IMG/VR virus record: IMGVR_UViG_2675903394_000003
Length of the DNA stretch: 29,878 nt
Direction: 5' to 3' (one strand)
From: a virus
Lineage: Duplodnaviria; Heunggongvirae; Uroviricota; Caudoviricetes
Positions 1,958-26,325 of the stretch are shown here, in pieces. A model generated the notes under the pieces. It was not told where the DNA came from and did no database searches. It saw only the letters and a program-made list of their open reading frames with translations. Position 1 is the first letter of the stretch, and every line of letters starts with the position of its first letter. The position numbers and the translations under genes were made by a program.

Positions 1958-4405
1958 TTAACCGTCATGCATCATGCTGGCACGGGCGCGCGCACGTTTA
2001 TCCCGCTCGTATTTTTCGAGCGCATCCTGTAACTGGCGGTCAAGCTGTGTCCCCGGCGCAGTACCACCCGTCAGGCTGATGTGATATTCGTTTTTACTCT
2101 GGTCTACATAAGAGCGGCCAGCCGGTGCCGTGACCGGCTGATAAGCCTGATAGCCTGCATAAGAGCTGGTCGCCGGAATATAACCACCGGTGCCATACGT
2201 GGCGGCATTAGTCCTTGCGGCGGTCTGGTCAAGTGTGTCTGACTCTTTGTTGATAACACCGAGTTTTTCCAGTACCCAGTCAATACCACTGCGCAGTTTG
2301 TTGAACGCATTAAGCGGCAGCATCAACGCGTCAGCCAGTGCCTGCCCGAACATGACGCCCGTGTCACGGCAACGGTTCAGGGTGTCCTGTGTGGCTTTAA
2401 CCGGGGCAATCAGGTTTTTAAACCACTGCCACGCGGCCTGTAACTTTTCGCCCAGCCAGTCAAACACCGGCTTCAGTGGCGTGAACAGTTCCCCCACCGG
2501 CGCAAATGCCGCTTTCAGCCCTTCAACCACACCGCCAAAGAATGCGCTGACAGGCTCCCAGTATTTACGGATAAGCAACGCCCCGGCGACAATGGCAGCC
2601 ACCACGGCCACAACCGGCCAGCTAATAGCCCCGATGGCGGTCATAACAGCACTGCCAACCGTCGTGAAGATTGCCCCCATTGCGCCTGCTGCCGCGATGA
2701 TGGCATTGATGCCGGTGATAACCGGCCAGGCTACGAGGCCAATGGCACCGATGACACCAGTCAGCGCCAGTGCACCACCGACAATGAGGCCGATGGTTGA
2801 CGCCAGTGATTTGTTTTTCTGGATCCAGCCGTCGAGTTTTAACACATACTTTGTGGCCGTCTGCGTGAGATTACGCAGTGCGCCTTCCTGCTGGTCAAAC
2901 AGGTCAGTTCCCACCGCCTCATAAGCGGACTGAAACTCCTTAAAGTCACCGCCGAGGTTATCCTGCATGATTTTAACCAGCTCTTCCGTTTTACCGTCCG
3001 AGGCTTTCAGCGTGGCGGTCAGCTTATCCAGTTTTCCGCTTGCTGCCGCTGCCAGTAAAACGTTCGCTGATTTCAGGGCTTCCTCACCAAAAATGGTTTT
3101 AAGGTATTCCCCCTTCTGAGACGTTCCCAGCTTGTGTTTATCAAAGCTGGCCTGAATCTCTTTCAGAATGGTGAACAACGGACGCATATTTCCCTTTTTG
3201 TCCGAGGTTTTAACGCCAAGCTCTTTGAGTGCATCCCATGCTTTTCCAGTCGGTGCCTGTAATCGGGTGACAACGGCGCTGCTACCCGTCCCCGCCATTG
3301 ACCCCCTGATGTTATTGTCATGCAGCACACCTGTCATGGCTGCTGCCTGTTCAAGACTTACACCTGCCGTCTTCGCAACCGGGCCGAGGTAAGTCAGTGC
3401 ATCACTGAGTCCCTGAAAATCAGCCGCCGACTTATTCATCGTTGCCGACAACACGTCGCCCACATGGCTGACATCATCATTTGACAGTTGAAACGATGCC
3501 TTAGTCCCCAGCAACAGTTGCGCGTTTTCTTCCATCGACCGCTGATTCGCCAGTGCCATATTCAGCGTGACCGGCGTTGCCGCCTGAATAGCCGCAGCAT
3601 CTCCACCCGCTTTCGCAATAATAATCTGCGCACCGGCCGCATCATCCGCCGAGGCGGCGGTATTGTCGCCGAGCTGGCGCGCCTGTTTGCGTAATGCGGC
3701 CATTTCGGTGGAGTCTTTTGCCACACCGAGCACGGCCTGTAATTCTGAGTTTTTCTGCGCAAACTCATAACCGGGCATCAGCAGCTTAACTCCGGCCATC
3801 GTTCCCGCCGCCGCAATCCCCACACCGGCAGCGCCTACTGAGGCCATATTTCCGGCCAGTTCCTTTCCTGCCTGATAACGCTGTTTGACTGCGTTAAGTT
3901 TTGCCTGTTGTGCACTGACACGCGCCAGCGCGTCACGCTGACGGTTAAGCTGGGCGGTGGTTTCACTGATACGGTTTTTCAGCCCTCGTTCATCATGCGC
4001 CAGATTACGGGTATTAATACCCGCCTGACTCAATTCCTGACGCTGGCGCTGTACCGACAATCTCAGGCTGTTATATTTCGCCTGTAACTCAGACACATTT
4101 TTACGCGCGGCTTCCATTGCCTTTGCCTGTGCATTTGTCGGTCGTTCAGTATTTTTAAACTGGACAGCCAGAGCTGCGGCTTCCTGTCTGGCTTTTTTCA
4201 GTTCCTGACCAGTCACGGCGAGCTGTGCACTGGTCTTGCGAAATCCCTCAATACGGGATGCCTGACCGTTCAGCTCGCGCAGTGATTTTTGTGTGTCCCG
4301 GATATCCCCCGACAGCGACTTACTCGCTGTACGGATGGATTTAAACGGGCGGGATGCCTGGTCAACAGCCCTGAGCAATACCTGTAATTTTACATTGTTA
4401 CTCAT
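1958..4405 (-). CDS. T: Tail tape measure protein T, 815 aa
   Basis: Length identical to P2 gpT; coiled-coil-rich N-terminal half and Gly/Ala-rich hydrophobic segment; follows E/E'. Confidence 0.93.
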   Translation of the reverse strand: MSNNVKLQVLLRAVDQASRPFKSIRTASKSLSGDIRDTQKSLRELNGQASRIEGFRKTSAQLAVTGQELKKARQEAAALAVQFKNTERPTNAQAKAMEAARKNVSELQAKYNSLRLSVQRQRQELSQAGINTRNLAHDERGLKNRISETTAQLNRQRDALARVSAQQAKLNAVKQRYQAGKELAGNMASVGAAGVGIAAAGTMAGVKLLMPGYEFAQKNSELQAVLGVAKDSTEMAALRKQARQLGDNTAASADDAAGAQIIIAKAGGDAAAIQAATPVTLNMALANQRSMEENAQLLLGTKASFQLSNDDVSHVGDVLSATMNKSAADFQGLSDALTYLGPVAKTAGVSLEQAAAMTGVLHDNNIRGSMAGTGSSAVVTRLQAPTGKAWDALKELGVKTSDKKGNMRPLFTILKEIQASFDKHKLGTSQKGEYLKTIFGEEALKSANVLLAAAASGKLDKLTATLKASDGKTEELVKIMQDNLGGDFKEFQSAYEAVGTDLFDQQEGALRNLTQTATKYVLKLDGWIQKNKSLASTIGLIVGGALALTGVIGAIGLVAWPVITGINAIIAAAGAMGAIFTTVGSAVMTAIGAISWPVVAVVAAIVAGALLIRKYWEPVSAFFGGVVEGLKAAFAPVGELFTPLKPVFDWLGEKLQAAWQWFKNLIAPVKATQDTLNRCRDTGVMFGQALADALMLPLNAFNKLRSGIDWVLEKLGVINKESDTLDQTAARTNAATYGTGGYIPATSSYAGYQAYQPVTAPAGRSYVDQSKNEYHISLTGGTAPGTQLDRQLQDALEKYERDKRARARASMMHDG

Positions 4406-4825
4406 TCGTGTTTCCGCTTCGCCGGAGCGCCTTTTCGCGCCATGTGATGAGTTCGGTCAGGCTCATGGGATACAGTTCTGATGGCGGCCAGTGAAATACC
4501 ACTGCCACATCCGCCATCAGGTCATCGACCGACAGATTTTTCGGAAACGTCACTGCACCGAGTTCGGCGACAAAAAACCGACCACCTTACCGGCCAGCGC
4601 CACAAGGTCAGGCAGTTCCAGCGCGGCGACTTCCTGCTCGGTCAGCATCGGTGCCGTCATGCGCGGCAGCACCTTAATCAGTGCATCGACTTCGGAGTTT
4701 GCAACCGCAGCCAGACTGACACCGCGCAGCGTCCCGGCATTGGGTTTCATCAGCGTGACCTGTTCGATAACCTGCTCACCACGTTTGACCGGATTTTCCA
4801 GGGTAATGACATTTTCTTTGTTCAT
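4398..4825 (-). CDS. E+E': E+E' tail chaperone made by programmed -1 ribosomal frameshift (predicted 142 aa)
   Basis: Slippery heptamer T_TTT_TTG on the minus strand (plus 4571-4577) at E codons 84-85; the -1 frame stays open for 57 codons to a TAA at 4398-4400 that overlaps the T start; 85+57=142 aa as in P2. Confidence 0.8.
4550..4825 (-). CDS. E: Tail assembly chaperone E, 91 aa
   Basis: Sequence MNKENVITLENPVKRGEQV... matches P2 gpE; ATG confirmed. Confidence 0.92.
   Translation of the reverse strand: MNKENVITLENPVKRGEQVIEQVTLMKPNAGTLRGVSLAAVANSEVDALIKVLPRMTAPMLTEQEVAALELPDLVALAGKVVGFLSPNSVQ
4571..4577 (-). other. Slippery site TTTTTTG for the E/E' -1 frameshift
   Basis: Read directly from the minus-strand sequence; X_XXY_YYZ in the E frame (GGT TTT TTG). 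Confidence 0.8.
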
Positions 4826-4881
4826 GGTTTTCTCACTTCTGAATCAGGGTTAACCGGTCAGCCTGGCTGACCGTATGAAAA

Positions 4882-5400
4882 TCACAGGCCGATATTTCGG
4901 CGGTGTTGCTCCAGCCGGTCGACGCCGTTCACCTTCTCAATCATGTTGATGGTGTCGATTTCGACCAGCTCCTTACCGTCCATCGTCAGCCGGAAATAAG
5001 TACAAATCACCGGGAGTTTCGATTCGGTATCCTCTCCCTGTTTACCCTCTCCGGTGTCGACTTCTTTCTGACGCCCACGCATGACCACTTCGACGGCCAC
5101 CGTTTCGCCGGTATCGTCGCGCTGGTAAGAACCAGCAAAACGAATCGGTACGGCATCAGCACTGGTTGCAGCGTAAAGCTCCCAGATAACCGAATCCGGG
5201 AATCCACCGAGCGACCACTCCATTGACAGCGCATCATCATCAAGGCCGAGGTCTACCGGTGCGCTGCCGTTCATTCCCGCACCGCGATAATTTTCGAGCT
5301 TACGGGTCAGTTTTGGCAGCGTGACGGAATTTGCAACGCCCTGATAGCTGTAGCCGTTCAGAAAGACATTCATGTATTTGAGTTTGCGCGGCATTGCCAT
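4882..5400 (-). CDS. FII: Tail tube protein FII, 172 aa
   Basis: Synteny and length as P2 FII; ATG confirmed. Confidence 0.92.
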   Translation of the reverse strand: MAMPRKLKYMNVFLNGYSYQGVANSVTLPKLTRKLENYRGAGMNGSAPVDLGLDDDALSMEWSLGGFPDSVIWELYAATSADAVPIRFAGSYQRDDTGETVAVEVVMRGRQKEVDTGEGKQGEDTESKLPVICTYFRLTMDGKELVEIDTINMIEKVNGVDRLEQHRRNIGL

Positions 5401-5412
5401 CGGTCAGGCTCC

Positions 5413-6603
5413 TTAATTGCTGTTAACCGAGGTGACCAGATTTGCCAGGTATTTATCGGTGATACGCTGGCGCAGGGTCAGGTTTTCGAGAGGAGGCACC
5501 GGGGTATAGTCGTAGTCGATATACAGTTTTCCGGCCTTGAGGGTTTCCGCATCGTTGGATTCTTCGCTGAACCAGCAGGTCGCATCCACGATATAGCCGT
5601 TTGTTTTCAGCTCACGGAATTTGGCATTGATGCCGTCAACGATGTCGCGAATCAGCGTTGCGGTGATGGGCTTGTCCACCGCCCACATGTGCGCCTCAGC
5701 CATCGTGTCGGCCAGCACCTGCGCGGTGCGGGTGTAGTTTTCAAAGAGGAACAGCGGGTCATCAGAGCAGGTACGGTTACCCCAGAAGCGGAAACCGTCA
5801 CGGCGAATCAGCGTTGTGACGCCTGACTCGTTCAACAGGTCAGCATCGGTGTCGGACTCCTGCAAATCCCAGAATACGGACGCACTGATGCCGGTAACAC
5901 CGTTTACCCCGACGTTGGACAGCGTTTTATGCCAGCCCTGCTCCTGGTCGATTTTAGCGCGCAGACCCAGCGCACGGGCGGTGGCATACGCGGTGGCGGT
6001 GGTACTGGTGACCGTATCCCATGCGAGGAAATCCGGCCAGATGACCATCAGCTCACGCTGACTGAAATTCTGGCGATAGGCTTTCACCTCGGAAATGGTC
6101 TTACAGCCCCATGCGCTGATATATCCGAAAGCGCGCAGCTTCTGACAGACTGATGCCAGTGCAACAGCCACCTCTTTGGTATCCAGCCCCGGCACACCAA
6201 GAATACGCGGTTTAACACCGGTTACCGACTCCGCCGCCAGCAGGGCTTTCAGTCCGGTGTACTGACCGTTTTCGTCGGTGGTGCCGATGATATTGGAAAC
6301 GGTCTGCGCGAGTTTCGTTTCCTCGTCGTCGCCGGTGCCGTCTTCCACACGCACGACAACGGTGACCGGTTTTGACTGGTCGGCGATGGCCTGCAACGAT
6401 GCCGCCAGCGTGCCTTTTTTACCAGCCTTTGCAATTGCGCTCTGCACATTGGTAATCAGCACCGGTTTATTGAGGGGGAAGGTTTCCGCATCCGCATCGC
6501 TGGCTGTGCAGACCATGCCGACAATGGCCGTGGATACGGTGGAAATGACGCGGGTGCCGTCGTTAATCTCCAGCACCTGCACGCCGTGATGATAGTCACT
6601 CAT
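5413..6603 (-). CDS. FI: Contractile tail sheath protein FI, 396 aa
   Basis: Synteny and length as P2 FI; ATG confirmed. Confidence 0.93.
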   Translation of the reverse strand: MSDYHHGVQVLEINDGTRVISTVSTAIVGMVCTASDADAETFPLNKPVLITNVQSAIAKAGKKGTLAASLQAIADQSKPVTVVVRVEDGTGDDEETKLAQTVSNIIGTTDENGQYTGLKALLAAESVTGVKPRILGVPGLDTKEVAVALASVCQKLRAFGYISAWGCKTISEVKAYRQNFSQRELMVIWPDFLAWDTVTSTTATAYATARALGLRAKIDQEQGWHKTLSNVGVNGVTGISASVFWDLQESDTDADLLNESGVTTLIRRDGFRFWGNRTCSDDPLFLFENYTRTAQVLADTMAEAHMWAVDKPITATLIRDIVDGINAKFRELKTNGYIVDATCWFSEESNDAETLKAGKLYIDYDYTPVPPLENLTLRQRITDKYLANLVTSVNSN

Positions 6604-11850: not shown

Positions 11851-12303
11851 CTAACGGTCGAGGTGCGCCAGAATAATCTCTTCAATCATCTGCACATCCT
11901 CACCGGTAAAGCCGAGCAGGGGACGCGCCGGATAATCAATTTTCTTACCGTCTTTCCGGTTTTCTTCCGACAGACCGAACTGATGCACACTGGCGATTTT
12001 CGGTGACTTTCCGCCGTAAAACTCCATTGATGCCTGTTCCGGGCTGGCGCGGATATGCAAAAAACGACTGGTGATAAGTTTCGCAAACATTTTTCGCTTA
12101 ACGCGACCGGTCTTTTTTCTGGTGCTCTGCTGCTGGCGTGGTGCGTAGGGTGTGCCGTCCGGGGCTTTCTGTGCCATCACCCGGCGCTGCTGACTCTGCC
12201 GCAGACGTTTCGCCAGTTCGGCACTCAGTCGCCGACGCCCTGACGGTGACAGCGATTCAATCAGTCCGGCCAGCCGGTCTTCAAAACGCTTAAACTCATT
12301 CAT
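11851..12303 (-). CDS. S: Tail completion protein S, 150 aa
   Basis: Synteny R-S-V, length as P2 gpS. Confidence 0.88.
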   Translation of the reverse strand: MNEFKRFEDRLAGLIESLSPSGRRRLSAELAKRLRQSQQRRVMAQKAPDGTPYAPRQQQSTRKKTGRVKRKMFAKLITSRFLHIRASPEQASMEFYGGKSPKIASVHQFGLSEENRKDGKKIDYPARPLLGFTGEDVQMIEEIILAHLDR

Positions 12304-21425: not shown

Positions 21426-22361
21426 TTAAAAGTCTTTATCTGCCTGATACTGCCCTGAACAGTAGTAACAACGATACTCAACATCACCATCATCCATTGG
21501 CCAAATGCTCATTTCGCTGCTGGGAGCCTGCGCACCACAACAATCGCAAGCAACATCAATATCATCACTATCTTCATTCTGACAAAAAGTGCATTTGTAA
21601 CCCGTAGAAGACTCATCAGAGGGAATCATTGTGTCGTTAGAACACTCAGGACATTCATAAACTTTCCAATCGACCAATTCATAAAATTTATGCCTAACCC
21701 CATAAAAAGCTTCAGCCTCTCTTTCTTCAACTTCTTTCTTGGCTTCAGAGAGCCGATGAGAGTATTCATCAGCTAAAGTTTGAAATATCTGTAAGTTATC
21801 TGCACCGACTTCATCTTCAAGATTAAAAAGATCGAAGATATCAATAAACTCAGCTACCCCCCGGACGAGGCGTCCAATACACAAGCGCGCGTCTTTAGGA
21901 GTAAGTCTGAATTGATAATGCTCAATATCATTTCTTAAATTCTTTATCCAAGCTATATCATTACAAAAATCAATATCTACAAAATCAACCCCAGTTATGC
22001 CGCATTTCTCACACTTAGCAAAGTTTAGTGCCTGATCTAAGGTTATCGTATATGGCTTAGATTTCCCTTCAATGAACCTTCCTAAATCAACGCCATCCTC
22101 GATAATTTTATTATATGCGTCTAAAAGACTGATTGATTCTTGCTTTGCTCTTGTAGCTATTTGTTTATAGCAATCGGAATACAGTAAATTTTCATCTACT
22201 GTAACAATATATAACTTCAACACCAGCTCAAGAAAATGTGACAAATGCAAGATAGCAAATTTATATTGCCGCAATTCTCCTCTCTGCCCTAACTCATACT
22301 TCGCTAAAGCTTCATTAAAACTATCAATAGCATTCTCTTGTAAATCCAGTTGATATTCCAT
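21426..22361 (-). CDS. Hypothetical cysteine-rich protein (311 aa from the preferred start) with an R-x4-H HEPN-like motif and C-terminal CxxC pairs; candidate defence-associated protein
   Basis: Long ORF in AT-rich cargo; preferred start is the ATG at 22359-22361, preceded by AGGTGA, while the track start at 22406 has no RBS; motif LRNDIEHY at nt 21918-21935; CPEC...CTFC and CDCC...CYYC at nt 21459-21653. Confidence 0.7.
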   Translation of the reverse strand: MEYQLDLQENAIDSFNEALAKYELGQRGELRQYKFAILHLSHFLELVLKLYIVTVDENLLYSDCYKQIATRAKQESISLLDAYNKIIEDGVDLGRFIEGKSKPYTITLDQALNFAKCEKCGITGVDFVDIDFCNDIAWIKNLRNDIEHYQFRLTPKDARLCIGRLVRGVAEFIDIFDLFNLEDEVGADNLQIFQTLADEYSHRLSEAKKEVEEREAEAFYGVRHKFYELVDWKVYECPECSNDTMIPSDESSTGYKCTFCQNEDSDDIDVACDCCGAQAPSSEMSIWPMDDGDVEYRCYYCSGQYQADKDF

Positions 22362-22426
22362 TACATCACCTAAAAAATTCATATTTATATGAGTGCAGAA
22401 AACCATTCAGCACTCATTGCTTATAA

Positions 22427-23158
22427 TCAATTATCTAATATTGATACAACCTCTCCCGTTCGTATGTCGACGCGCGCAGCTATAGTCTGCTTAACCACTC
22501 CACCATAAGCATTAGTACCGCGAAACGTAGTTTTCACAATAGCGTACGGGTCTTTATTCAAAACCAAATGATATACCGTTGACACATGTTTATAAGATGA
22601 ATCATCGTTCATATTATCTTTAATTAGTTTTTCCAATGGACGATAAGAACCATCCCAACCACTAAAATTACTCTGAAATGTATCAAGATTGATTTTATTG
22701 TTTAGTGAATTCGGGTCATTTTCATAATCATTAAAGCACCACCCAAGAACATCACCGAGTTTCAACTCATCATCTTTGGTAAATGTATACTCACTCATGC
22801 AGGCATAAAACGCATCTGACGCGGTGGCTGGAACTTCCTTAAAATCAATGTAACTATTCACAATATCGTGTCGTGTTTTCTTTGACTCGTTCCGATATTC
22901 CTTGAGTGTTTTTTCACCATATTCGAATGTTTTTTGGACTTTGTGTTCTGCAACGGTTGATGTTTCAGTTTTAGCAACTGGCTGGCTTTTTTCTGTTGGA
23001 TAGAGTATTGAACCAATTATGCTCAATACAAAACCTCCTCCGAGATAAACCGCACTTGCACGTTTGCGGTTTGGCATTCGCACCAGTGATGGCTTGATTA
23101 ACCCGATGAAGAAAGCAACGAAAAAAGCGAGTGATAGAAAAGCGATTATAGTATCCAT
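22427..23158 (-). CDS. Hypothetical membrane protein (243 aa from the preferred start) with two N-terminal TM helices and a ~180-aa C-terminal domain
   Basis: Hydrophobic segments IIAFLSLAFFVAFFIGLI and AVYLGGGFVLSIIGSILY separated by the basic loop KPSLVRMPNRKRAS; preferred start is the ATG at 23156-23158, preceded by AAGGA; AT-rich. Confidence 0.7.
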   Translation of the reverse strand: MDTIIAFLSLAFFVAFFIGLIKPSLVRMPNRKRASAVYLGGGFVLSIIGSILYPTEKSQPVAKTETSTVAEHKVQKTFEYGEKTLKEYRNESKKTRHDIVNSYIDFKEVPATASDAFYACMSEYTFTKDDELKLGDVLGWCFNDYENDPNSLNNKINLDTFQSNFSGWDGSYRPLEKLIKDNMNDDSSYKHVSTVYHLVLNKDPYAIVKTTFRGTNAYGGVVKQTIAARVDIRTGEVVSILDN

Positions 23159-23381
23159 AGCTATCCTTTTTGCATCATCCACATAAAAAATCGACCTCAT
23201 GTTAGCAACAGGATGCTTACTTTTGAATATTTGTAAGTTGTTGGCTCTCCAACCTAACTCCTTTCAACCGTCAAAAACCGGCACCAACGCAGTAAAAATA
23301 TGTCTGTCAACTAACGCCTCGCTTCGCTCGTTGTTCAACCCCGCCAGCCCTGAAAACAAGTTTCACGACTGGCGGCGTTCT

Positions 23382-23588
23382 CTATCGTCTGCGTGGTGGT
23401 GGCGTAACTCTTGATTGACCGATATGATTAAACCGCCCGTAATTATCCCGGACTATTTCGGCACACCCGACCAGCTCATCGGGCGTCATATTTTCGTTGA
23501 CCATAATCCGCTGTAAACGCTGAACAATAGCCATCAGCTTGATATTTTTAGTTTTATGGTGCGGTATCTCGCCTGGTATTCTGTGCAT
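23382..23588 (-). CDS. Hypothetical small protein (68 aa)
   Basis: ATG at 23586-23588 overlaps the upstream stop as TAATG (translational coupling); the track ORF start at 23600 is a GTG. Confidence 0.45.
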   Translation of the reverse strand: MHRIPGEIPHHKTKNIKLMAIVQRLQRIMVNENMTPDELVGCAEIVRDNYGRFNHIGQSRVTPPPRRR

Positions 23589-24043
23589 TATCCAAGCCAC
23601 CCGTTTTGCTGTGCACGCTCCATCTGTTCATCTGAATAGTTCCATGCTCCATCCGTGGCAACCATTGCCCCGCCAGACATCCCCGTCTCTGGTTCATACA
23701 TAACAGCAAGGCCGAGCTGATGCATAATTTCATGATTAATTCTGAATACCAGACCACGCTCACTAAGTTCTTTCCAGTTCACAATCTCATATGCGCCTGT
23801 ATTAAGCAGCTCAATACTTAGCAAGACATAATCTTCCAGCCAGTCTGACAGGTCAGTAACATCTGTTATCCGGGCTTCAACCTTTCGCCCCGTATACACA
23901 CCCTGCACCCATTCATGCAAAATCAACGTGTCCCCGTGCTCATAATTACGGTCATTTTTCCGAAACTCTGCGCGTTTCTTTCCTTCCAGCACAAGGTCGA
24001 AATATTTTGCGTGCAGCTTTACCTCGTGAATTTTTGCCATCAT
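23588..24043 (-). CDS. ASCH/DUF3850-like (PUA-fold) protein, about 151 aa
   Basis: N-terminal MAKIHEVKLHAKYFDLVLEGKKRAEFRKNDRNYEHGDTLILHEW resembles the DUF3850/ASCH signature as I remember it; ATG at 24041-24043 overlaps the A stop and is preceded by GGAG. Confidence 0.6.
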   Translation of the reverse strand: MMAKIHEVKLHAKYFDLVLEGKKRAEFRKNDRNYEHGDTLILHEWVQGVYTGRKVEARITDVTDLSDWLEDYVLLSIELLNTGAYEIVNWKELSERGLVFRINHEIMHQLGLAVMYEPETGMSGGAMVATDGAWNYSDEQMERAQQNGWLG

Positions 24044-26325
24044 CTCCACTCCATTACTGTTGAGAATCCCGGCCACTCATCAGCGACCGGATACGTGAAT
24101 TTTTTCCCGTCATAATTTACAGTCGCGCCACGCGCCAGCGCCTCAAGCTCCCATCGCTGCGGCCTGATACCGTTCTGAGCAAGGTCAACGCGGATACGGG
24201 TAATTTGCATTCGTTCCGACCGGGTCAGTCTGGCCGATGGCGCTATTTCATGCGGTTTTAACGGGCTTCCGGCTCTTTGCTGACGATTTGGTGTTCTCAG
24301 GCCGTGTTTTAATGCGCCCCTGAGCGCCCTCACGACCTCCGGGTCATTCCATTCGATAACACCGTCATCAACCAGATTAAGCACTGCTGCGGCGTGTTCA
24401 GAAGGTGTGGGAGCCGGTAACGAAGCATCACTGCTGGCAGGCTTTCCACAGTTATTGACAGGACTCCGAGGCGCGGCGATGCCGCTTTTTAAAGTCAAAG
24501 GCTCCACGACCGGAACTTTCGGCACAATGCGCCAGTCCGTCGTTCTGGTGATATGAATATGACGCGCGCCGAGATGCGGCGCGTAAATGCCGACCACTCT
24601 CTCGACCTCTTCCTCGTACTCGTTAACGTCATCCGACGGGCTACGGGCGACCCTGACAGTCTGACAATCGCGCGGGACATTTGCCCCACCCTGCGCGCTG
24701 ATATACAACGCAAAATCACCACTGTCTGCGGCGGCGCGTGCAGCCTCGACGCGCTCGTCAAACTCATCAGCAATGCTGACGCCGCGCGGCAATTTGCGTA
24801 GTTCACGGTAAGCCCCCATTGTCGGCAGACCAACCGTTTTAAATTGCGGGATGCGCCACGTTGACGCCCATGCAGTAACAGCCGCGGCAGTATCTTTCAG
24901 CGGTCTGCCGGTATCGTTATCGAGCTGACCATCCAGTGCATAGCCGTCGATGTTTTTTGAGATGTATTTCGCGATATACCCCGCAGCACCACCCCGATTA
25001 AGGTGTTTTGCCTGAAAACGGTTTCGCGCGGCTCCTCTTTCGTCGCCATCCTCTTTGAGCGCATAGCGACGCATGATTTCGATAATCTGGTTACGCTGGC
25101 GTGGATTACAAAAAAGCATCATATGCCAGTGCGGCGTTCCGTCGTGGTGTGGCTCGACGACTCGCAAACCGTAGACCTGTAAATCATTATCCTTGAATGC
25201 CGTGCGCATCAGGCTCCAGATACGGCAGAGATATCGCTGCGCATCCTTTGGATTAAATGCCTCATCATTCCAGCCGTGATTAAGCTGGACGGTTTTACTT
25301 TCGCCTTTTCCGACCTGACGTGTCGGGTGATACTTTGACGGTGCGGTCAGCGTGATAAACATCCCCACATCACCCTCTGCGGCGGCGTAACGCTCAATAC
25401 CGGCGATGGTGTTCATCAGCTCCATCCGGCGAATTTCAGGATTAGAAATACTGCCCATCACCTTACTGATAAGGTCGATGCGCTCGCCGGTTTCCCTGTT
25501 TTCAAGGTCACACGATTTAAGAAATTCCAGATTTGCCTGGCGGCGTGCACGCACATCCCGAATGGCATGTTTACTGGCATAAGGAGAACGGTCTTTATTG
25601 ACCTCCCCGACAGCTATCAGTAACGCCTCATGCCAGCGCATACGCTGGCCTTTAAGCTGATGAGTCCACCACTCATCGTTAAACAGGCGGGCAATGGCAG
25701 AATATGCCTGCCTCGTGGTCATCTGTCCTTTACGGTATTTTTTCCAGTAGAGAGGGGAAATATTGAAAGCACGTGCAGCGCCAGCAACATGACCATAGAG
25801 GTGAGCCTGCGCCTCATCCGTAAACAGCGATTCTTTCTCGCCATGCGCATCCACCCAGGCATCGCAGAGTTCCTCATACATCATGAAAAGCTGCGATGAA
25901 ATACGGGCGGCAAACTTTTTCAGCTCCTTGTCATTCATTCCAGGCAGGCGCGCATAGTGGTCGCGCTCTGCCAGAAACAGCAACGACGCGTCGGTGTTCA
26001 TTTCATGGCGCTGATTCACGCGCTCAATGCGCGGCCATAAACGACGCTGAAAAGTGGATGTGAGGAAATAAAACCCGTGCACCGGGCTTTTATTGCGCCG
26101 GATGTAGTCATAGCGTGAAGTAAACAGCGAGCGCAAAAAGTAAGGCAGGCGGTTAATCGTGGATAAAACACCTTGCACCTGACGCATCTCGTCACGTGTA
26201 AGGGGTCTTTCGCGCCCGACAGCCTCGCGTGGCGCGTTCCATGCATAAGCACCGGTAAACATCTTACCGGTGCCTGCGGCAAATGCTGACGGAGGGACAA
26301 AACGCCCGGAGGCTTTAACGGCCAT
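24040..26325 (-). CDS. A: Replication initiation protein A (rolling-circle nickase), 761 aa
   Basis: Start at MAVKASGRFVPP (ATG 26323-26325) gives the P2 gpA length; the track start at 26367 is a TTG. Confidence 0.92.
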   Translation of the reverse strand: MAVKASGRFVPPSAFAAGTGKMFTGAYAWNAPREAVGRERPLTRDEMRQVQGVLSTINRLPYFLRSLFTSRYDYIRRNKSPVHGFYFLTSTFQRRLWPRIERVNQRHEMNTDASLLFLAERDHYARLPGMNDKELKKFAARISSQLFMMYEELCDAWVDAHGEKESLFTDEAQAHLYGHVAGAARAFNISPLYWKKYRKGQMTTRQAYSAIARLFNDEWWTHQLKGQRMRWHEALLIAVGEVNKDRSPYASKHAIRDVRARRQANLEFLKSCDLENRETGERIDLISKVMGSISNPEIRRMELMNTIAGIERYAAAEGDVGMFITLTAPSKYHPTRQVGKGESKTVQLNHGWNDEAFNPKDAQRYLCRIWSLMRTAFKDNDLQVYGLRVVEPHHDGTPHWHMMLFCNPRQRNQIIEIMRRYALKEDGDERGAARNRFQAKHLNRGGAAGYIAKYISKNIDGYALDGQLDNDTGRPLKDTAAAVTAWASTWRIPQFKTVGLPTMGAYRELRKLPRGVSIADEFDERVEAARAAADSGDFALYISAQGGANVPRDCQTVRVARSPSDDVNEYEEEVERVVGIYAPHLGARHIHITRTTDWRIVPKVPVVEPLTLKSGIAAPRSPVNNCGKPASSDASLPAPTPSEHAAAVLNLVDDGVIEWNDPEVVRALRGALKHGLRTPNRQQRAGSPLKPHEIAPSARLTRSERMQITRIRVDLAQNGIRPQRWELEALARGATVNYDGKKFTYPVADEWPGFSTVMEWR

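Follow-up and report, generated by a model that had tools for sequence, protein, structure and literature searches.

The E/E+E' tail assembly chaperone cassette of a P2-like prophage: a programmed -1 frameshift and a conserved Shine-Dalgarno-like motif upstream of its slippery site

Introduction

Phage lambda makes two tail assembly chaperone products, gpG and gpGT, from a cassette located between the major tail (tube) and tape measure genes (Levin 1993; Xu, Hendrix and Duda 2004, 2013, 2014). The two share an N-terminus and arise by a -1 frameshift near the end of the first open reading frame (ORF), at the slippery sequence G_GGA_AAG. According to the lambda model, G has the tape measure protein as its binding partner and the T domain has the major tail protein; there is no strong downstream structure, and the ratio of chaperone to chaperone plus recruiting domain is presumed to be fixed (PMC5009743). 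The E/E+E' cassette of phage P2 is the myovirus counterpart of lambda G/GT. Here we analyse this cassette in a 29,878-nucleotide stretch of viral DNA, IMG/VR record IMGVR_UViG_2675903394_000003, which we call the window. The window's cassette has the same position, a predicted pair of products related in the same way, no strong downstream structure and the same presumed role, but its slippery sequence is T_TTT_TTG. It also differs in having no detectable sequence similarity to the lambda proteins, in belonging to other Pfam families and in serving, as in P2, a contractile tail.

The frameshift of P2 itself has been described (Christie et al. 2002, J Bacteriol 184:6522). Christie and colleagues are said to have found, in 2002, fusion polypeptides at about 10% frameshifting and to have shown by complementation that E' is essential. 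In P2 a -1 frameshift at TTTTTTG gives a 91-amino-acid (aa) E and a 142-aa E+E', and neither P2 nor three Burkholderia relatives have a downstream hairpin (Lynch et al. 2010, PMC3091744). E' has no ribosome binding site and a T6G run lies ahead of it, an arrangement that P2-like phages share (Lee et al. 2014, PMC3931495). For P2 and its relatives, the efficiency of the shift is given as 2-3 times the lambda G-T value (Atkins et al. 2016, PMC5009743).

[quoted passage not shown] In addition, they rely on a hairpin or pseudoknot 3' of the site and on the efficient heptamer A_AAA_AAG, whereas the site examined here has the weak U_UUU_UUG and no downstream structure. Published criteria for a stimulatory SD are AGGKG at a distance of 6-17 nt (Sharma et al., PMC4066793). 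In E. coli reporters, U_UUU_UUG shifts at 0.118% when unstimulated, at 0.247% with the IS911 stimulators and at 0.765% with the IS3 pseudoknot (PMC4066793, Table S3).

We find that the window almost certainly carries the E/E+E' tail assembly chaperone cassette of a P2-like (Peduovirus) prophage, expressed by programmed -1 ribosomal frameshifting. The P2 E/E+E' frameshift is already known, and to this extent the finding is correct but ordinary. Comparison of relatives also points to a conserved SD-like motif just upstream of the slippery site, for which we advance, more tentatively, a stimulatory role.

Results

The locus corresponds to the P2 frameshift cassette

All coordinates refer to the whole window; the E, E' and T genes all lie on its minus strand, which a preliminary description of this DNA had left unstated. 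That description, made from the letters and a list of ORFs, had proposed a P2-type tail chaperone pair, and comparison with bacteriophage P2 (AF063097 / NC_001895) supports the proposal at the level of DNA, annotation, shift junction and Pfam families. Positions 4300-4900 are 98.2% identical to P2, and 74 phage records match this interval at 95-99% identity. Over the 481 nt spanning E, E' and the start of T there are 7 differences from P2, none of them in the heptamer. The P2 record annotates, at the homologous place, gpE, a joined coding sequence (CDS) gpE+E' and a misc_feature 'site of -1 translational frameshift'; its note for gpE+E' reads 'shares amino terminus with gpE; -1 frameshift; essential tail protein'. 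The deposited P2 protein (AAD03292.1 / NP_046780.1 / UniProt O64312, TAPFS_BPP2, 'Tail assembly protein E'') has the junction ...GFLVAELG... that the preliminary model predicted for the window. The two loci agree in heptamer, junction, -1-frame stop, overlap with T and product lengths (91 and 142 aa), and their fused proteins differ by three substitutions (D10E, S29N and I110V). The window copy is not that of the P2 reference genome: it sits in a P2-like element with the gene order of a prophage, in which ogr is leftmost and int rightmost.

Gene E (4825..4550, minus strand), identified from the ORF list and its translation, starts with ATG at 4825..4823, ends with TGA at 4552..4550 and encodes the 91-aa chaperone as its 0-frame product. 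The heptamer T_TTT_TTG, which had been placed at E codons 84-85, indeed lies there in phase, at 4577..4571 (minus strand; nt 249-255 of E). It consists of the third base of GGT (codon 83), TTT (codon 84, Phe; P site) and TTG (codon 85, Leu; A site), in the minus-strand context ...GGT AAG GTG GTC GGT TTT TTG TCG CCG..., 6 codons before the E stop. The fused coding region E+E' (4825..4398, minus strand) comprises 85 E-frame codons, a -1 shift that re-reads G4571, and 57 sense codons VAELGAVTFPKNLSVDDLMADVAVVFHWPPSELYPMSLTELITWREKALRRSGNTNE (VAELGAV...SGNTNE), followed by TAA at 4400..4398. Both the exact length of the open -1 frame, with no early stop after the slippery site, and the resulting 142-aa product (85 + 57) are thus as first described. 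Upstream, a TAA in the -1 frame (4589..4587, minus strand) lies 9 nt 5' of the heptamer and sets the 5' limit of the 37-nt overlap in which a shift can be productive; a shift yielding E+E' is therefore possible only inside this overlap, which includes the heptamer.

The two parts of the fused protein belong to recognized families. E matches Pfam PF10109 Phage_TAC_7 (E-value 3.8e-12, 46.5 bits against a cut-off of 25, residues 7-85), described as 'tail assembly chaperone proteins E, or 41 or 14', and PHROG 103 'tail protein' (E-value 6.8e-45). The exact E protein is present on at least 1000 contigs, where it is named 'phage tail assembly protein'. The -1-frame extension matches Pfam PF06528 Phage_P2_GpE (E-value 5.8e-22, 77.4 bits against a cut-off of 23) over fused residues 104-139, and PHROG 1756 (E-value 3.1e-28). 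These residues form the conserved E' domain (4517..4410, minus strand), which is encoded only in the -1 frame and whose motif, DDLMADxAVxFHWPPSE...WRE, is also seen in an alignment of 19 fused homologues. Neither E nor E+E' matched NCBIfam, and no sequence homologue was found in the PDB.

An open -1 frame of this length is uncommon in tail genes of the window. In 14 such genes, only 1.9% of codon positions have a -1 frame that stays open for 57 codons or more, the mean open length being 14 codons. The same genes hold 15 in-phase X_XXY_YYZ heptamers, and only at that of E does the -1 frame pass the 0-frame stop, by 51 codons. The TTTTTTG string itself occurs in phase a second time, at 12058-12064 (minus strand) within a 150-aa ORF (11851-12303). 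There the -1 frame is open for 37 codons and ends inside the gene, so that a shift would yield a truncated product; this second occurrence is most likely due to chance.

The frameshift arrangement is conserved among relatives

A tblastn search with the fused protein matched 421 phage records, 401 of which cover at least 80% of the query, and in 57 of the 60 matches listed the query was matched in two pieces. We compared P2 and 20 diverse loci with 36-77% protein identity (21 phage-database loci in total), the latter from phages of Klebsiella, Salmonella, Erwinia, Enterobacter, Yersinia, Burkholderia, Stenotrophomonas, Ralstonia, Serratia, Pseudomonas, Aeromonas, Vibrio, Mannheimia and Citrobacter and from a faecal contig. 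In all 21 loci (36-98% protein identity), the frame of E' is offset by -1 from that of E, and the overlap holds a slippery heptamer in phase. The heptamer is TTTTTTG in 17 loci and TTTTTTT, TTTTTTC, GGGAAAG and AAATTTT in one each.

We extended the comparison by a census of IMG/VR, in which a degenerate DNA pattern for the E' motif [MVI]ADIAx[IV]FHW retrieved 105 distinct loci. In 100 of them there is a T6N heptamer in phase, from which the -1 frame stays open as far as the motif (82 G, 8 A, 7 C and 3 T at the seventh base). Two more have a GGGAAAG-type site and three have no heptamer, which brings the loci with a slippery site to 102/105.

Some departures from the common pattern were seen. 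In a Pasteurellaceae branch (Mannheimia phage PHL101 and two IMG/VR loci), T_TTT_TTG is replaced by the lambda-type G_GGA_AAG; here the frameshift is retained while the slippery site has moved to a different position in the overlap. Two distant E' homologues from IMG/VR, which share the motif AAKLIADIAIVFHW, have an overlap without a canonical X_XXY_YYZ. Their only candidate site, TCT_TTT_ATC, could support P-site-only slippage on U_UUU and may reflect a different shift mechanism in this subgroup. In IMGVR_UViG_2823426463_000001, E and E' are in one continuous frame (...AGFCCRS...) with no in-phase heptamer, and the end of E' is disrupted. Its T run is presumably one base shorter; an error in sequencing the homopolymer, or decay of the prophage, is the probable cause.

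Other routes to the E' domain are improbable

The E' domain could in principle be made as an independent 51-aa protein. An ORF at 4553..4398 (minus strand) starts with GTG (4553..4551), which overlaps the E stop by 4 nt as GTGA, an arrangement compatible with termination-reinitiation coupling, and the NCBI annotation pipeline PGAP calls this ORF 'GpE family phage tail protein'. We consider this route very unlikely. The GTG has no SD (-2.6 kcal/mol), just 7 of the 115 distinct relatives have a GTGA or ATGA overlap, and in only 5/115 is any -1-frame start preceded by an SD-like sequence. The in-phase heptamer, by contrast, is nearly universal, and conservation in the -1 frame includes the residues V/A-A-E-x-G, encoded between heptamer and GTG. 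A fusion product is also what the P2 record and published descriptions report (PMC3091744, PMC3931495). A second ORF in the -1 frame between the major tail and tape measure genes, lacking start signals of its own, is the pattern set out by Xu, Hendrix and Duda (2004), and it is the one found here.

Alternatively, RNA polymerase might stutter on the T6 run and insert an extra U, so that a subset of mRNAs would encode E+E' in one frame. The homopolymeric run exists and the resulting protein would be nearly identical, with GFFVAELG at the junction; this variant was found once in the protein collection, in the E. coli protein QTN08932.1 of 142 aa. E. coli RNA polymerase, however, is not known to slip efficiently on runs shorter than about 9, and the run is 6 in the large majority of relatives (112/115), only the 4 TTTTTTT loci being able to have a longer one. 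Moreover, all T6 heptamers of the census are in X_XXY_YYZ phase and the three loci without a heptamer have no out-of-phase T6 run. The seventh base is non-random (G 95, A 8, C 8, T 4; n = 115), and the SD-like element described below is kept at a fixed distance. Such features (the phase, the seventh base, a motif that binds ribosomes) are expected to count when ribosomes slip and not when the polymerase does. We rate transcriptional slippage as very unlikely too.

Finally, heptamer and open -1 frame might be a functionless coincidence in this prophage. One sequence alone would not exclude this, and an in-phase X_XXY_YYZ string is expected in about 5% of 37-nt overlaps (estimated as 12 positions x 1/256). 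Coincidence is excluded because the -1 frame encodes a Pfam domain, over a length at which it is rarely open, and because the arrangement is kept across phages of Enterobacteria, Burkholderia, Ralstonia, Pseudomonas, Vibrio, Aeromonas and Mannheimia.

No stimulatory RNA structure is found downstream

The preliminary description had suggested looking for a stimulatory structure downstream of the slippery site. Folding, z scores over 22 loci, RNAalifold and Rfam revealed none, and nothing like the hairpin or pseudoknot 5-9 nt downstream that defines a structure-stimulated -1 signal is found here. Positions +1..+61 fold no better than shuffled sequences (-16.1 kcal/mol, z 0.18), and the z scores of +1..+45 scatter around zero across the 22 loci. 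RNAalifold gave 0 consensus pairs for 14 diverse loci. A search of Rfam returned no match other than two sub-threshold chance hits, both on the opposite strand. These results agree with the absence of a downstream hairpin reported for P2 (PMC3091744).

Further downstream, a perfect 10-bp inverted repeat, CTGATGGCGG / CCGCCATCAG, can form a hairpin at +51..+93 (4520..4478, minus strand), and the corresponding 101-nt fold has z = -2.67. We rejected this hairpin as a stimulator: it is too distal, close enteric relatives alone have it intact, and it overlaps codons of E' that are conserved (LMAD / WPPS).

An SD-like motif is conserved upstream of the heptamer

On the 5' side, the sequence TAAGGTGGTCGG (4589..4578, minus strand) contains AGGTG at 4587..4583, at a spacing of 6 nt from the heptamer, which makes it a candidate 5' stimulator. 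The motif and its position are of the dnaX/IS911 type and fall within the published range for stimulatory SDs (PMC4066793); 95/115 relatives qualify as well, compared with 10.7% of control positions in the same genes. Across the 115 distinct relatives, positions -11..-6 from the first T read R-A-G-G-T-G.

We asked how far this pattern departs from codon usage. The E/K codon at this place ends in G in 88/92 loci, versus 42.7 expected on the basis of the other E/K codons of these genes, and in 35/38 versus 17.6 expected within a set of 56 representatives sharing less than 75% ungapped identity. The next Val codon is GTG in 74/93 loci versus 43.3 expected. Between -200 and +60, the 9-nt window -11..-3 has the strongest complementarity to the anti-SD (mean -8.75 versus -2.09 +/- 1.44 kcal/mol). 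These comparisons support a real nucleotide-level constraint on synonymous sites of the AGGTG. We also noted a trend in which pyrimidine-ending (better-shifting) heptamers more often lack the SD (SD present in 7/12 versus 88/103, P-value ~0.03); it is too weak and phylogeny-dependent, and we set it aside.

The surrounding genes and their annotation

By Pfam, the tail genes lie in the order sheath (5413-6603), tube (4882-5400), tape measure (1958-4405), GpU (1464-1943) and GpD (301-1464), all on the minus strand. Directly upstream of E is FII, the tail tube protein gene (5400..4882, minus strand; PF04985 Phage_tube, E-value 7.5e-60). Downstream is T (4405..1958, minus strand), with ATG at 4405..4403 and an 815-aa tail tape measure product (PF10145 PhageMin_Tail, E-value 1.4e-44; also from the P2 annotation). 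The order FII - E/E' - T within an FI-FII-E-T-U-D operon is that of a P2-type chaperone pair.

The overlap of the E' stop with the T start, another feature noted in the preliminary description, is seen in the string ATGAGTAA: the TAA at 4400..4398 falls within codons 2-3 of T, and 8 nt are common to both ORFs. Since T itself has a weak SD (-3.7 kcal/mol), its translation may be tied to those ribosomes, a minority, that enter E' by frameshifting. In most annotated relatives (nine loci) the E' stop and the T start overlap by 4-14 nt.

It had also been remarked that simple ORF calling would miss the fusion. This holds, since PGAP lists E' as a stand-alone GTG-initiated gene: the RefSeq/PGAP record inspected has a 51-aa 'GpE family phage tail protein' at the counterpart of 4398-4553 (minus strand) and not a joined E+E' CDS, and the same two feature names appear in the eight entries listed. 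The E/E' locus is present in 1,583/5,426 complete E. coli genomes, and the separate-gene annotation of E' looks like a widespread shortfall.

Outside the tail region, two ORFs of 326 and 257 aa occupy 21426-23200 (minus strand), between the cos/Q side and the replication genes. Both lack Pfam domains; a partial match to the PADLOC candidate system PDC-S64 (E-value 2.1e-17) was found for the 326-aa protein. At this position the P2 map has tin/old, and the two ORFs may represent anti-phage defence cargo at a known variable hotspot of P2. A 162-aa ORF with DUF3850/ASCH and DUF7415 domains (23588-24076, minus strand) adjoins the replication gene A region.

Discussion

Our analysis met no evidence that contradicts the frameshift itself. 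From about 99% identity to P2, E+E' is expected to be produced in this prophage too, and E' to be essential. In the mechanism we propose, most ribosomes would read E to its TGA and release the 91-aa chaperone, while a minority would move back by one base at U_UUU_UUG, where tRNA-Phe occupies the P site (UUU) and tRNA-Leu the A site (UUG). The slipped ribosomes would continue in the -1 frame, make the 142-aa E+E' with its GpE domain and terminate on the start of T. Downstream RNA structure would play no part. By analogy with lambda gpG/gpGT, the shared E part may bind the tape measure protein and the E' part may recruit the tube protein FII, and the frameshift would fix the ratio of the two proteins needed for correct tail assembly. 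Different routes would leave different junction peptides: ...VVGFLVAELGAVTFPK is expected from tandem slippage after Leu decoding, and ...VVGFFVAELG... from P-site-only or transcriptional slippage.

The role of the upstream motif is less certain. The rates of the U6G heptamer in reporters are far below the level reported for P2, which means that some element of the P2 context must stimulate the shift. The SD-like motif is the only conserved candidate that we found, and a plausible one. The conserved AGGTG would pair with 16S rRNA and thereby raise the efficiency of the intrinsically weak U6G. Several points weaken this proposal. The 6-nt spacing falls at the bottom of the range published for stimulation (6-17 nt in PMC4066793, 9-14 nt in PMC5009743), and about 17% of relatives have no qualifying motif. 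The synonymous-site statistics are uncorrected for phylogeny. In addition, the IS911 stimulators, SD included, raised U6G shifting only about 2-fold (PMC4066793). We found no description of an SD-like element or of an SD-mutation experiment for P2 in the searchable literature, beyond whose reach the original P2 paper lies. On balance, we regard stimulation of the -1 shift on U_UUU_UUG by the upstream motif, throughout the P2 family and without downstream structure, as a serious possibility that falls somewhat short of a probable one.

For this window, the significance of the frameshift is confined to annotation, in that the 142-aa E+E' should be entered as a joined CDS; the biology is that of a textbook fixed-ratio chaperone pair for phage tail assembly. 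If the SD-like motif does act as a stimulator, it would explain the several-percent shifting reported for P2 despite the 0.12-0.77% obtained with U_UUU_UUG in reporters, and it would explain why a weak, G-ending heptamer is the one retained family-wide. With a poor heptamer, an upstream SD-like motif and no downstream structure, the P2 family offers a clean natural setting in which to study -1 frameshifting stimulated by an SD alone.

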